Notes: generated by a model from the letters alone, not told the origin. Positions 3,730 to 59,113 are shown, counted from the whole stretch's first letter. The stretch is DNA of 62,534 nt, filler included, from Limisphaerales bacterium (GCA_044225505.1; 9 parts of 9 records of this genome joined end to end with filler, not necessarily neighbours in it); one strand, 5' to 3'. Numbers and translations: made by a program.

Positions 3730-4214
3730 GCACGTTAGACGCGATGCTAAGGAACGTCAGGGAAGGCATCCCGTAGGTTTGGTGGCAGAAATTCCACAAA
3801 ATGCCTCGTTACCTGCTGGAACAGGGACAGTTGCAGTCCAATCAGCAATTGCTGATCGGACTCCTTTCGCGCAGCAGGCACGGATAGTCCTTTCCGATTT
3901 CAGCAGGCACTTAGGCGCCATCCCCTTACTGCACCGTGGCAACGAGGACGCCTAAAGACGCAATGCACCCGACCTTCGCGAGGGGCTTCAAGCTTCACGT
4001 CGACTGTCACCAGCGCGGTGTCGATGATTTGGCCCGTTCGATGAAAACGGATGGCTCTCACGGAGGCACCAATCCTCAGCGCGGCTCAGCCGCAACCGAG
4101 GGCTGCTGGTTGTTTGTGCGTCGTATTAGCCGACCAGCTTCACCTCCGCCGCGCTGAGATATTTCTCCTGCCGGAGAAAGAGGAAAATCGAGCCCCACGG
4201 CTGTGGACCCGGTA

Positions 4215-55680: not shown

Positions 55681-55688
55681 GGGCCAGT

Positions 55689-55994
55689 ATGTTCGGCTAT
55701 CGATTCAAGCGGCGAGTCTTCTGGAAGCTGACGCAGCTGAGCAGCATTGTTGTAATGCGGCCTCGGCTGATCGCATCCGTGTGCGCGCTGTCGGTCTGTA
55801 TGGCCATCCTGTTAACCTTTTCCAGCCGCTGGGTGTTCGCGTCCAAAGTCACGATTCATGTGAGGGATTTGTGCGGGAAGTGCGGCGTGATTCACAATCC
55901 ATCCGTGGATTGCCTCTCCGTCCAAGTGGGCTTCGACATTCGCAAGCTGAAAAATCTGCCATACGGGATGCAAGGTGAAGGATCTTTGCCCTAA
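55689..55994 (+). CDS. Cassette 1: hypothetical protein
   Basis: Stop TAA lies inside attC R'' (CCCTAAC); hydrophobic segment and CxxC; frame uncertain. Confidence 0.5.
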   Translation: MFGYRFKRRVFWKLTQLSSIVVMRPRLIASVCALSVCMAILLTFSSRWVFASKVTIHVRDLCGKCGVIHNPSVDCLSVQVGFDIRKLKNLPYGMQGEGSLP

Positions 55995-56114
55995 CGAATC
56001 AATGAACACGAACTGCCGCTACTTCCTTCTCGTTCGGAGGCACCGGGCAATTTGGGAGCCATTTGCGCGATCAAACTTTCCCTTCAGCGGCGGTCGGTTA
56101 TTTCAACGTTCGCC
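55989..56114 (+). repeat. attC site 1
   Basis: CCCTAAC...AAT(G)AAC...ACTGCCGCT // AGCGGCGGT...GTTATT...GTTCGCC. Confidence 0.85.
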
Positions 56115-56127
56115 CAGAGTCTTGGCA

Positions 56128-56622
56128 ATGAAGCGCTGTGGCAGAGTTCGAAATGCGGCAATTGTTCTCGGGCTGGTCCTGGTGGTGCTCGGCGTGACCA
56201 TATGGCGGATGGCTATCTCGGATCAGATCCCAATTCACGTCACGTCTGATAGGCCGATCATCGTTCTGCGTGAACTGTCGCCAGCCGACGTGGCCGAGAT
56301 TGTGGAGCGCGTGCGCAAATACAAGCGACAAAGCGATAAATCAGCCCTTCGCCGGTTTGGCCTCAGCGGGGCTCCCAGCGTCTTGTGTCGGCACTTCTTT
56401 GAGCCTATCCGCGAGATGGAAATTGAGCGCGACGGCAGTGTGACCGTTCTAGCGAGGAGCACTCGTGAACGGCCCCCGACTGGGACAAAGCCGAACCCAA
56501 GGTATTCGGGCTACGGGCGCAGTTACCGAATGGTGAAGGAAACTAACGCTTGGCAGGTAGCTGGAACAGGAGGCTTTACTGCTGGCAGCAAGATCGTGAC
56601 AATCAGCTATAGTGGCCAATAG
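56128..56622 (+). CDS. Cassette 2: hypothetical protein with N-terminal TM
   Basis: ATG 13 bp after attC1; stop 9 bp before attC2. Confidence 0.75.
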   Translation: MKRCGRVRNAAIVLGLVLVVLGVTIWRMAISDQIPIHVTSDRPIIVLRELSPADVAEIVERVRKYKRQSDKSALRRFGLSGAPSVLCRHFFEPIREMEIERDGSVTVLARSTRERPPTGTKPNPRYSGYGRSYRMVKETNAWQVAGTGGFTAGSKIVTISYSGQ

Positions 56623-56631
56623 AAAAACGAG

Positions 56632-56760
56632 GGCTAACAATCGGGTAGAGCAGAACCGCCGCCCCGCGCCGCGGTTTCGGAGCTGCACTGGCAACTTGAT
56701 CGCGACCACAGCTTCCGTGAGCACGTCTCCAGCGGCGGTCGCTCACCCGAGGCGTTAGCC
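56632..56760 (+). repeat. attC site 2
   Basis: R'' GGCTAAC, 5 nt, L'' GGT(A)GAGC ... L' GCTCACC, 6 nt, R' GTTAGCC: canonical spacing. Confidence 0.93.
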
Positions 56761-56773
56761 CTTACCACGCGCT

Positions 56774-57109
56774 ATGAGCTCGCCAGCGATTTACGTTTAC
56801 GTAGACGTGGATGACACATTCGTTCGTAGTACCAGTTCCAAGCGCATCCCCATCCCCAGCGCGATTCGGCACATTCGTGCTTTGAAGGACCAGGGGGCGG
56901 TTCTTTACTGCTGGAGCTCGGGCGGGCGGGATTACGCTCGGCGAAGTGCCGATGAGTTCGGGATTGCTGATTGCTTCGAGGCATTCCTACCCAAGCCAAA
57001 CGTGCTTCTGGATGACATGTCGATGACCGCATGGCCGAGGTTCATTACAATTCATCCGGGCAGCTGCAATACCCAGACTTTGGAAGATTACAGGAGACAG
57101 CTGAAATGA
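56774..57109 (+). CDS. Cassette 3: minimal HAD-like hydrolase (DUF705-like)
   Basis: YVDVDDT (DxDxT), WSSGG, KP and LLDD motifs. Confidence 0.8.
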   Translation: MSSPAIYVYVDVDDTFVRSTSSKRIPIPSAIRHIRALKDQGAVLYCWSSGGRDYARRSADEFGIADCFEAFLPKPNVLLDDMSMTAWPRFITIHPGSCNTQTLEDYRRQLK

Positions 57110-57110
57110 G

Positions 57111-57203
57111 GGCTAACCAGCCAACTGAACCGAACTCGGCAAGAACACTGAGGTTCCAAATCGAAGCCAACGGGCGCCGAGTCGGTTACCGGCGTCGTTC
57201 GGC
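57111..57203 (+). repeat. attC site 3
   Basis: GGCTAAC...T(G)AACCGA(A)CTCGGC // GCCGAGTCGGTTA...GTTCGGC. Confidence 0.85.
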
Positions 57204-57209
57204 GAAGAA

Positions 57210-57506
57210 ATGCCAATGAGACTACGCCTGCCCATATCAGCGAGCTATGACCGCCCGATTTTCGAAGCTCTAGCGATGCAAATCGTTTTAGGCCTGCTGA
57301 GTGGAATGATTCTGGATGGAGGACTGGTTGCGCAGTTCTGCGGGATCGCTTTGGTCGCTTTTTGGACGGGCGCAGCCGTTCTGATCTGGAGGCATCCTCA
57401 GTCCCCGTCAAAACTGGACCTCTCCCTGGTTCGGGTTGGGTATTTGCCTGTAGTCGCTCTCGCGTTTTTCGTGGCTCCAGTGGTTTGGCGTTTGAGGGGG
57501 ATCTGA
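57210..57506 (+). CDS. Cassette 4: small 3-TM membrane protein
   Basis: 98 aa, hydrophobic, MILDGG motif; bounded by attC3 and attC4. Confidence 0.8.
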   Translation: MPMRLRLPISASYDRPIFEALAMQIVLGLLSGMILDGGLVAQFCGIALVAFWTGAAVLIWRHPQSPSKLDLSLVRVGYLPVVALAFFVAPVVWRLRGI

Positions 57507-57516
57507 TGAGGGGAAC

Positions 57517-57642
57517 GCCGAACAAATCGATGATGGCGAACCGCCGCTGCGCTAATCCGCTCGCCGCGGAGTGGAAACTTGGGCGTGCAGTTCACGCCCT
57601 CGCATTACTCCCAGCGGCGGTCGCATATCTCCATCGTTGGGC
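57517..57642 (+). repeat. attC site 4
   Basis: GCCGAAC...GAT(G)ATG(G)CG(A)ACCGCCGCTG // CAGCGGCGGTCGCATATC...GTTGGGC. Confidence 0.9.
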
Positions 57643-57653
57643 AGCGTAGCGCG

Positions 57654-58118
57654 ATGCATTTCACAGTGACAGTGTTGGTTGGCGCCTATGGCATTGGCGA
57701 CGTTCTGTTGAAGCGACCACCGGAGTTGCGCTTGTTAGAGGATCTCTTCGGCGAAGGTCGGGTGCGGAAGCCTAATCCGGAGTTTAGCCGAGCGAAATCG
57801 ACGATTCATACTTTTGACGAAGCAGGTGTGTGGCTCTACGAGGAAGGCAAAGTGGTAAAACAAGTGTCCTTTCTCTTCTGCGAGCCACTTCCTCGGGTTG
57901 ACTTCCATCCGGCAAAGGTTTTCTGCGGCGCTCTAAGCATCAGCGGCAGGAAGGTCAAGTGCGTCGATGACTTCTTTGCCGTCGAATCTGACGAGATGGA
58001 CTTAAACGAATGGGAAACAGAAGGTTCGGCCAGCATGACTCTCGGCAGGCTTCGCTGTGACCTTTGGCGTAACCCGAAATCCCGAGCGATACAGGACATT
58101 TCGCTTTGGTTTCCATGA
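57654..58118 (+). CDS. Cassette 5: hypothetical protein
   Basis: ATG 11 bp after attC4; stop 4 bp before attC5. Confidence 0.75.
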   Translation: MHFTVTVLVGAYGIGDVLLKRPPELRLLEDLFGEGRVRKPNPEFSRAKSTIHTFDEAGVWLYEEGKVVKQVSFLFCEPLPRVDFHPAKVFCGALSISGRKVKCVDDFFAVESDEMDLNEWETEGSASMTLGRLRCDLWRNPKSRAIQDISLWFP

Positions 58119-58122
58119 TCAT

Positions 58123-58212
58123 GCCCAACCACCGAATGCATCGAGTACCGCGAGTAAACCAAACCAGAAGTCGACCACTTGGGCGCGGTGTCGATGATTC
58201 GGACTGTTAGTC
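58123..58212 (+). repeat. attC site 5
   Basis: GCCCAAC..CCGAAT(G)CATCGA(G)TACCGCG // CGCGGTGTCGATGATTCGG...GTTAGTC. Confidence 0.9.
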
Positions 58213-58224
58213 CACTGCGCAGTC

Positions 58225-58710
58225 ATGCCACTTACCAGCCGAGTTCGACCGCGAATAGGAGACATCATCGAGATTCCGACCCCGAAGGGGCTTGCTTATG
58301 CGCAGTTCACACACAAGCATGACACACCTCCTCGTTTCGGTGCGCTTCTCCGGGTGTTGCCCGGCCTTTTTGCTCAACGGCCTGTGGATTTTGCAGACTT
58401 GGTCTGTCGGCAGCCAGCGTTCAGCACGTTTTTCCCGTTGGGCGCTGCGTGTAACCGCGGCATTGTCCGTGTCGTGGCATCAGAGGAGATTCCCCGACAT
58501 TCAGAGTCTTTTCCGATCTTCCGCAGTTCGCATCGCGACAAGACTGGCAAACGAGCAGGCCCATGGTTTCTTTGGGACGGACAGCGCGAGTGGAGAGTGG
58601 AGGATTTGAGTAACGAGCAGCTTCGAGACTATCCCCCGCGTGGCATCTGGAACGACACATTGCTTATAGAGCGGATCCTGGCGGGGTGGAGGCATGAGCA
58701 CGATGTCTGA
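58225..58710 (+). CDS. Cassette 6: Imm26-like putative immunity protein
   Basis: RIGDIIEIPTPKGLAYAQ...GALLRV N-terminus and GIWNDTLLIERILAGW C-terminus resemble Imm26-type proteins. Confidence 0.6.
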   Translation: MPLTSRVRPRIGDIIEIPTPKGLAYAQFTHKHDTPPRFGALLRVLPGLFAQRPVDFADLVCRQPAFSTFFPLGAACNRGIVRVVASEEIPRHSESFPIFRSSHRDKTGKRAGPWFLWDGQREWRVEDLSNEQLRDYPPRGIWNDTLLIERILAGWRHEHDV

Positions 58711-58716
58711 CAAATG

Positions 58717-58845
58717 GACTACCCACCGCGAGGACCGGAACTGCTGCTGCTACTCCCGGTTCGATCCTTGCCGGGAAGCTCTGACGAGCTATTATAACAG
58801 CGTGAGACCTTTTCCAGCAGCAGTCGGTCACGCGGACCGTTCGGC
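58717..58845 (+). repeat. attC site 6 with mutated R'' (ACC instead of AAC)
   Basis: GACTACC..CCGCGA(G)GACCG(GA)ACTGCTGCTG // CAGCAGCAGTCGGTCACGCGG...GTTCGGC. Confidence 0.85.
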
Positions 58846-58859
58846 TGCATAGCCCAAGC

Positions 58860-58950
58860 GTGGAGACTTCGAGAAAACAACGAGCGGCGGAGATTCAAGA
58901 TTCCATTCGCCAAATATTGTTCCGAGATTGGGATCCGATCGGAGTGTGTT
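58860..58950 (+). pseudogene. Cassette 7: interrupted WDPIGV-motif small protein
   Basis: IRQILFRDWDPIGV, then an abrupt switch to TCGAAGG(GGTC) repeats. Confidence 0.6.
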
Positions 58951-59113
58951 CCGATCGAAGGTCGAAGGGGTCTCGAAGGGGTCAGCCATTAGGGCCCTGG
59001 TCAACAAGAAAAAACGTTATCTATCCGATTTTTTCAAAACGGTTTTGCCGCAGCTTTTCCGACCCGAACTCTGCCAGCAGACACGAACCTGCGTTCTCGT
59101 TGCATGAATCGGA

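Follow-up and report, generated by a model that had tools for sequence, protein, structure and literature searches.

The cassette array of contig C193

The window analysed here, a 62.5-kb stretch of DNA, is composed of nine contigs of a single assembly (G000), which are separated by spacers of N/TTAATTAATTAA. One of these contigs, C193 (3,433 bp; positions 55681-59113 of the window), is filled over its entire length by an array of short genes alternating with attC recombination sites, and this array very probably represents part of the gene cassettes of an integron on a Verrucomicrobiota chromosome. The assembly, of wastewater origin, amounts to 9.04 Mb in 342 contigs, with an estimated completeness of 95% and contamination of 4.7%, and the G+C content is 55.9% for C193 vs 57.3% for the genome. 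Five complete cassettes of 439-646 bp were recognized, each carrying a single co-oriented open reading frame (ORF) of 98-164 codons. The ORFs of C193 start 12-20 nt past the GTT crossover, and stop 0-10 nt ahead of the next R'' box. A preliminary description of the stretch had listed six attC sites of 126, 129, 93, 126, 90 and 129 bp, and both the places and the lengths were reproduced when 7-nt R boxes were used (the coordinates in Table 1 are for 8-nt boxes). The core GTT was present at all six sites, and R'' ended in AAC at five of them.

The sites fall into three subfamilies. The stem GAACYGCYGC...CAGCRGCRGTCG, said at the outset to be common to attC1, 2, 4 and 6, was confirmed at these four sites, which constitute subfamily A. 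Over the 9-Mb genome this stem motif was found six times, four times on C193, once on contig C60 beside an intact integrase gene, intI, and once on contig C314. A close relative of attC3 (subfamily B) was identified at C60:71762-71856, likewise beside the intact integron, and relatives of attC5 (subfamily C) at C314:1162-1256 and C314:1565-1656. Pairwise identity within a subfamily is 40-76%, the conservation being mostly in the stem. An Rfam scan of C193 gave no relevant match, the only two being at E 8-9 and both under the gathering scores.

Folding and covariation of the attC sites

The bottom strands of the attC sites were folded as single-stranded DNA, and each was compared with 200 shuffled sequences. 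For attC2 (-40.2 kcal/mol, z -3.98), attC4 (-35.4 kcal/mol, z -3.69), attC5 (z -2.92) and attC6 (-30.7 kcal/mol, z -3.92), none of the 200 shuffles was as good. The folding proposed as a check of the sites was thus borne out for these four sites, but attC1 folded no better than its shuffles and attC3 was marginal (see Discussion). In attC hairpins the asymmetry due to extrahelical bases is expected on the R''-L'' arm. In all six predicted folds this arm carried more unpaired bases than the other arm, in one-sided bulges (T and TC in the case of attC2).

A covariance model, R1, was then constructed from 15 aligned sites of C193, C60 and C314, with 18 hand-set pairs. The C193 sites belong to the training set and their scores (Table 1) are circular; the behaviour of R1 elsewhere is independent. 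When all 62.5 kb were scanned unfiltered at E<0.001, the matches of R1 were limited to the six sites, one on the reverse strand of the nearly symmetric attC2, and one further site at 3949-4043. The latter (30.8 bits, E 1e-4, R' GTTCGATG) is located near the end of a 4-kb contig, C168, which may be a further array fragment. In 660 kb of sequence surrounding relatives of IntI (80 loci, many phyla), R1 gave 20 matches at E<=0.1, distributed over 15 loci, and all 20 were located upstream of intI on the opposite strand, as in the layout of an integron; the other 65 loci gave no match at this threshold.

Compensatory changes were detected in 7 of the 18 predicted pairs among six subfamily-A sequences, attC1 included. 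We also aligned 58 R1 matches from the attC-bearing regions of the genome to the R1 structure, a fit that by itself favours covariation. In this alignment 73.9% of the cells were paired vs 26-41% after sliding of the partners, and the covariation score was 0.40 vs 0.07-0.12 for the slid partners, a value that was reached by none of 500 shuffles. RNAalifold gave no structure for the mixed MAFFT alignment of all 15 sites because the subfamilies were out of register, and subfamily A alone and the hand-set structure were used instead. A scanner of R boxes, which matched R' to R'' of one site, missed most sites because these two boxes need not match fully, and it was dropped.

Sites of the same kind are spread over the genome. 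Using sequence profiles of the subfamilies, 57 attC-like stretches were detected on 22 contigs, the 15 training sites included, and R1 identified 57 sites within the attC-bearing regions examined. The whole-genome scan by R1 scored 150 of 4,026 candidates, and its count is a lower bound. Several arrays are located at contig ends because repeated attC sites break short-read assemblies, and some lie on large contigs without intI, such as C330 (110 kb) and C273.

Recombination footprint at the cassette edges

If the integrase cuts between G and TT of R', the bases that follow GTT would be those of the next cassette, and a match with R'' of that cassette is expected. The complementarity between each R'' and the 5' edge of its own cassette, already pointed out in the preliminary description, was observed on C193 at 24 of 25 variable positions (4, 5, 5, 5 and 5 out of five for cassettes 2-6), and cassette 6 matched at all five although its R'' ends in ACC. 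For the 32 adjacent attC pairs of the genome that could be ordered, the own-edge total was 122 of 160, vs a mean of 73.3 for permuted pairs, and the observed total was reached in none of 20,000 permutations. The mean per pair was 3.81 of five, vs 2.19 of five for the physical hairpin partner of the site. A score of three or less was obtained for 10 of the 32 pairs, some of which come from weak model matches or degenerate sites.

Presence and absence of cassettes in metagenomes

The C193 stretch was present in part in runs from ten studies, and Logan contigs were examined for four runs from four studies. In three of these runs (X1, X2 and X6; three studies) a contig joins two positions of the window so as to skip one or two whole cassettes (Table 1). 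The position of each joint is ambiguous by 4-5 nt, G|TT being included each time. Collapse of the de Bruijn graph is an unlikely cause because the flanks of the joints have only those 4-5 nt in common. Full and shortened forms were found side by side in X1 and in X2. In addition, X2 and X8 have contigs that part from the window exactly at 56108|56109, which is the attC1 crossover, and loose ends of metagenome contigs gather at 58972-58991. The uncovered parts of the stretch in X6 and X8 were not counted as absence. These observations are direct, if modest, evidence for the gain and loss of whole cassettes at the predicted crossover.

The cassette ORFs

None of the seven ORFs of C193 reached a Pfam cut-off. 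The ORF of cassette 3 scored 17.2 bits against DUF705 (cut-off 20.4), and that of cassette 5 reached 23.9 bits against DUF7738, just under the cut-off of 24.6. Six of 27 cassette ORFs from other arrays matched a family (DUF6881; DUF4279 with SEC-C; DUF1801; ankyrin; SMI1/KNR4; GNAT). No resistance-gene family was detected among the seven ORFs of C193 or these 27, and we regard the cassettes as a pool of uncharacterised small proteins, not of resistance genes.

Integrase, attI and decayed platforms

As stated in the preliminary description, C193 is devoid of intI (no TIGR02249 match on the contig). The search of other contigs for intI and the attC consensus, which had been suggested there, was rewarded on C60, where an apparently intact intI, an attI and the same attC subfamilies were identified. 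The IntI protein of C60 scored 268 bits against TIGR02249 (cut-off 265), and aligned end to end with VchIntIA of Vibrio cholerae (PDB 2a3v; residues 10-308, E 9e-49). The alignment includes the IntI-specific segment, around LPxxLxxKYPxA...W..LFPS, which is absent from other tyrosine recombinases of the genome (on contigs C201 and C122). What we take to be the catalytic residues, Arg, Lys, His-x-x-Arg, His and Tyr, appear conserved with respect to VchIntIA. Against the class-1-type equivalog NF011946, the score was 187 bits (cut-off 435).

The attC sites of C60 follow from 70642 onward on the plus strand. The first cassette has GTTGCGCG as its 5' edge, 38 nt upstream of the start of intI. This edge and R'' of the same cassette, CGCGCAAC, are complementary at 8 of 8 positions, and the GTT of GTTGCGCG is therefore the likely attI crossover. 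The array contains subfamilies A and B, and extends over four to five cassettes up to the contig end. The C60 IntI is presumably active, and would be the maker of the variants observed in metagenomes.

A perfect 14-nt palindrome, CGAACCACGGTTCG, was found 13-26 nt upstream of both the intact intI and a truncated copy (Table 1), and may serve as an operator or, within attI, as an element bound by IntI. Control by the SOS system, with CGAACCACGGTTCG as LexA box, is not supported, the motif being absent upstream of both lexA genes and recA. The two lexA genes (C204:15321-15932 and C311:74633-75244) are above the family cut-off, and have inverted repeats, one differing from the other, immediately before their start codons.

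The truncated intI (C60:64385-64690) encodes residues 1-133 at 58% identity and is located 4.6 kb from the intact gene. Together with the attC-like sites that follow, this locus looks like a tandem, decayed second platform. Another intI, on contig C311, is a pseudogene whose reading frame is shifted once and contains three stops, but the IntI-specific segment is retained. The tyrosine recombinases of about 380 aa on C201 and C122 (379 and 381 aa), which adjoin attC sites in an integron-like layout, were considered as extra integrases and rejected, the IntI segment being missing. Behind each recombinase lies a gene for about 377 aa, the product of which presumably resembles, as judged by eye, an IS91-type transposase, and these two-gene units are read as insertion elements inside the arrays.

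Host and distribution

The verrucomicrobial host proposed initially was supported by RpoB, which is 86% identical to that of two genomes recorded as metagenome-assembled genomes (MAGs) of Verrucomicrobia, vs 55% to that of a Polyangiaceae MAG; the RpoB query gave no match in the two other genomes compared. The nearest relatives of the C60 IntI are 45-52% identical over about 318 residues and belong mostly to MAGs of Verrucomicrobiota and Limisphaerales (loci L012, L013, L015, L016, L020 and L021). In loci L012, L016 and L021, attC-like sites are located upstream on the opposite strand. The closest relatives (50-52%) come from the same two genomes as the RpoB of 86% identity. No IntI found among species representatives is more than 52% identical to that of C60. 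Other IntI proteins in the order of the host are 35-41% identical to the C60 IntI, and score 276-464 bits against TIGR02249. The low identity and the low TIGR02249 score therefore place the C60 IntI in a divergent subclade.

A comparison covered 41 genomes, namely G000 itself, 14 members of the same family and a further 26 from the order. IntI over the cut-off was detected in 17 of the 41, including 6 of 12 from the same family and neither of two from the same genus, one of which is only 63% complete. R1 matches were detected in 21 of the 41, including 10 of the 12 and both of the same genus. Of 151 genomes of the order, 16 contained the strict subfamily-A motif, vs one of 151 for a reversed-pattern control; among the 80 intI loci, which come from many phyla and were scanned as loci, none contained it. 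The claim of a lineage-specific attC family is supported in part by these counts, the scan of whole genomes having stayed within the order. That integrons are little studied in this group, as also claimed, is a fair statement, but the survey of Cury et al. (2016; PMC4889954) already names Verrucomicrobia among the integron-bearing phyla, and describes attC clusters without an integron integrase (CALINs), intI pseudogenes and insertion sequences in arrays.

Contig ends and repeats

C193 ends on both sides at a break of the assembly, which on the left falls within a cassette and on the right within a multi-copy repeat. The final 141 nt are 99-100% identical over 134-141 nt to contigs C278, C245, C47 and C219, and 93% identical to C49, the similarity reaching about 780 nt in C245 and C219. 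In run X1 the word depth was about 40 over this repeat (58973-59113) vs 6-17 over the cassettes. The repeat interrupts cassette 7, and explains the contig break. No transposase was found beside the copies looked at, and the repeat is not classifiable as an insertion sequence. Joining of contigs by end overlap was attempted, but the sole overlap of C193, 134 nt with C219, links nothing because it lies in this repeat, which is common to five contigs. The same analysis gave an overlap of 140 nt between C330 and C201. A repeat of about 240 nt (C245:17757-17996) is present on more than 20 other contigs at 77-96% identity, and is located near attC arrays on C82, C132 and C330.

Table 1. Cassettes, attC sites and related features. 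Positions refer to the window unless a contig (C) or an extracted locus (L) is named.
Feature	Position	Strand	Description
Cassette 1, 5' end off contig	55681..56108	+	ORF 55689-55994, 101 aa; ends at G of attC1 R'
attC1, subfamily A	55988..56115	+	R'' GCCCTAAC, R' GTTCGCCC; R1 61.3 bits
Cassette 2, 646 bp	56109..56754	+	ORF 56128-56622, 164 aa; hydrophobic N-terminal stretch by eye
attC2, subfamily A	56631..56761	+	R'' GGGCTAAC, R' GTTAGCCC; R1 61.2 bits
Cassette 3, 443 bp	56755..57197	+	ORF 56774-57109, 111 aa
attC3, subfamily B	57110..57204	+	R'' GGGCTAAC, R' GTTCGGCG; R1 70.7 bits
Cassette 4, 439 bp	57198..57636	+	ORF 57210-57506, 98 aa; hydrophobic by eye
attC4, subfamily A	57516..57643	+	R'' CGCCGAAC, R' GTTGGGCA; R1 61.6 bits
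Cassette 5, 570 bp	57637..58206	+	ORF 57654-58118, 154 aa
attC5, subfamily C	58122..58213	+	R'' TGCCCAAC, R' GTTAGTCC; R1 70.7 bits
Cassette 6, 633 bp	58207..58839	+	ORF 58225-58710, 161 aa
attC6, subfamily A	58716..58846	+	R'' GGACTACC (degenerate), R' GTTCGGCT; R1 64 bits
Cassette 7 start, cut by repeat	58840..58972	+	ORF from 58860
End of multi-copy repeat	58973..59113		Terminates C193; outside the integron
Joint, run X1	56752 to 57196		Skips 443 bp = cassette 3 (56755-57197); shorter side 26 letters
Joint, run X2	57194 to 57634		Skips 439 bp = cassette 4 (57198-57636); shorter side 21 letters
Joint, run X6	56752 to 57635		Skips 882 bp = cassettes 3 and 4; shorter side 85 letters
Intact intI	C60:69303-70238	-	325 aa
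Palindrome CGAACCACGGTTCG	L009 7918-7931 and 2352-2365 (C60)		0.04 expected by chance in 10 kb
Truncated intI, then four attC-like sites	C60:64313-67162 (L009 1963-4812)		Beside the intact integron
intI pseudogene and two attC sites	C311:23515-26944 (L011 8516-11945)		attC sites 48.8 and 50 bits
Two-gene unit among attC sites	L093 1100-3365 (C201), L092 11431-13714 (C122)		Recombinase of about 370-380 aa and protein of about 377 aa

Discussion

What is known of the mechanism of integrons comes mainly from work on Vibrio and on clinical class 1 elements. According to this mechanism, a unit of C193 would have a single ORF without promoter and, behind it, an attC site, the bottom strand of which would form an imperfect hairpin recognised by the integron integrase. 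The integrase would cut this hairpin between G and TT of the R' box, and cassettes would be released in circular form and be inserted again, either at attI or at a different attC. The C60 IntI could work on C193 in trans, or in cis if the C60 array goes on into C193. The identification of C193 as a cassette array is based on the anatomy of the sites, the covariation of the stem, the own-edge footprint, the integrase gene of the same genome and the cassette-exact variants in metagenomes.

Several observations weigh against this identification or against parts of it. As for the sites, R'' of attC6 has ACC instead of AAC, the bottom strand of attC1 (-14.9 kcal/mol, z +1.18) was matched in stability by 178 of 200 shuffles, and that of attC3 (z -1.82) by 9 of 200. 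To these must be added the circularity of the R1 scores on C193 and the fit of the 58-match alignment to the R1 structure. Each metagenome joint comes from a single contig of low depth (3-5x), not from raw reads, and two of the flanks are short (21 and 26 letters). The C60 IntI is only 3 bits above the TIGR02249 cut-off, the lowest of the over-cut-off matches in the order of the host, and no sigma-70-like cassette promoter was detected near the C60 attI. Finally, no contig physically joins C193 to an intI.

The last point leads to the most serious alternative, to which we give somewhat less than an even chance: C193 could be a CALIN, set apart from any intI by rearrangement or by decay of intI, in which case any mobilisation of its cassettes would have to come from the C60 IntI in trans. 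The spread of attC arrays over about 22 contigs is in line with this possibility, and so are the arrays at the ends of large contigs without intI (C330 and C273). The truncated intI of C60 and the C311 pseudogene indicate that platforms do decay in this genome, and both genomes of the same genus have attC matches without an intI match. The two ends of C193 are, however, assembly breaks, and the C60 array, with the same subfamilies A and B, runs off its contig after four to five cassettes, so that C193 could be its continuation. A CALIN is defined by at least two attC sites without intI within about 4 kb, a distance to be read against a contig of 3.4 kb that is broken at both ends.

According to the definitions given by Cury et al. 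(2016; PMC4889954), a complete integron consists of intI plus at least one attC nearby, which is what we found at C60 but not at C193 as assembled. In the same source, sedentary integrons are those with more than 19 attC sites or those present in all genomes of a species; here about 57 attC-like sites were detected genome-wide, but as a total over about 22 contigs. The preliminary description had offered a sedentary chromosomal integron or a CALIN. The cassette-array reading common to both is supported, and with the assembly fragmented C193 may be either of the two.

It is very unlikely that C193 was misbinned and derives from another organism of the same community. Such an error could occur in a bin of 342 contigs with the contamination estimated above, and C193 is both small and slightly lower in G+C content than the genome. 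The strict subfamily-A motif, however, occurs only six times in 9 Mb, and two of these are on larger contigs, C60 (72 kb) and C314 (13 kb). Subfamilies B and C also recur on C60, C314, C330 and C311 (124 kb). The closest IntI relatives come from the two genomes with an RpoB of 86% identity, and the same stem motif is present in 15 other genomes of the order. Hardly any credit can be given to a view that takes the spacers for intergenic palindromes of a common type, for instance terminators or repetitive extragenic palindromic (REP)-like elements, unrelated to integrons: they are GC-rich hairpins directly after stop codons and match no named Rfam family, but this view leaves unexplained the GTT/AAC cores, the match of R'' with R' of the previous site and not with its own partner, the R1 matches upstream of intI in 15 unrelated genomes, and the deletions that end exactly on G|TT.

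Beyond the identification of C193 as a cassette array, we consider it possible, though rather doubtful, that one divergent integrase serves three attC classes over at least 10 loci in this 9-Mb verrucomicrobial genome, and shuffles cassettes today in wastewater and biofilm communities. Shuffling at the present day is suggested because the cassette-exact variants come from three independent studies. If this were true, this lineage would offer a tractable natural system for integron dynamics outside Proteobacteria.

The array on C193 is real but ordinary, an element of a known kind and not of a new one. The system is like the chromosomal superintegron of Vibrio cholerae with respect to the platform with many cassettes, the footprint at the cassette edges and, as noted above, the integrase itself. 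The VCR (Vibrio cholerae repeat) sites are very alike. Here, in contrast, there are three attC subfamilies, each diverse in sequence, and the host belongs to another phylum. With the mobile class 1 integrons it has in common the intI-attI-cassette logic and the crossover at G|TT, and it differs from them in the lack of a resistance family in the scanned cassette ORFs and in the score for NF011946, far below the cut-off. No Tn402-type context was seen here, unlike in class 1 integrons. The integrases of Verrucomicrobiota and Limisphaerales MAGs are the nearest relatives known to us from this analysis, in part with attC-like sites in the same arrangement, but their identity to the C60 IntI does not exceed 52%.

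There is also agreement with the chromosomal integrons and CALINs as IntegronFinder defines them (Cury et al. 2016; PMC4889954). In both cases intI has the IntI-specific domain, the attC hairpins show R and L boxes together with extrahelical bases, the cassettes hold single co-oriented ORFs, for the most part of unknown function, insertion sequences lie in arrays, and one genome unites a complete integron with attC clusters devoid of intI and with pseudogenes of intI. The present genome is not in the set of complete genomes of that survey. The locus adds to the known systems a well-documented example from Verrucomicrobiota in which a single genome contains all the parts, namely an intact integrase together with its attI, decayed platforms, dozens of cassettes with three attC shapes, and insertion sequences within the arrays.

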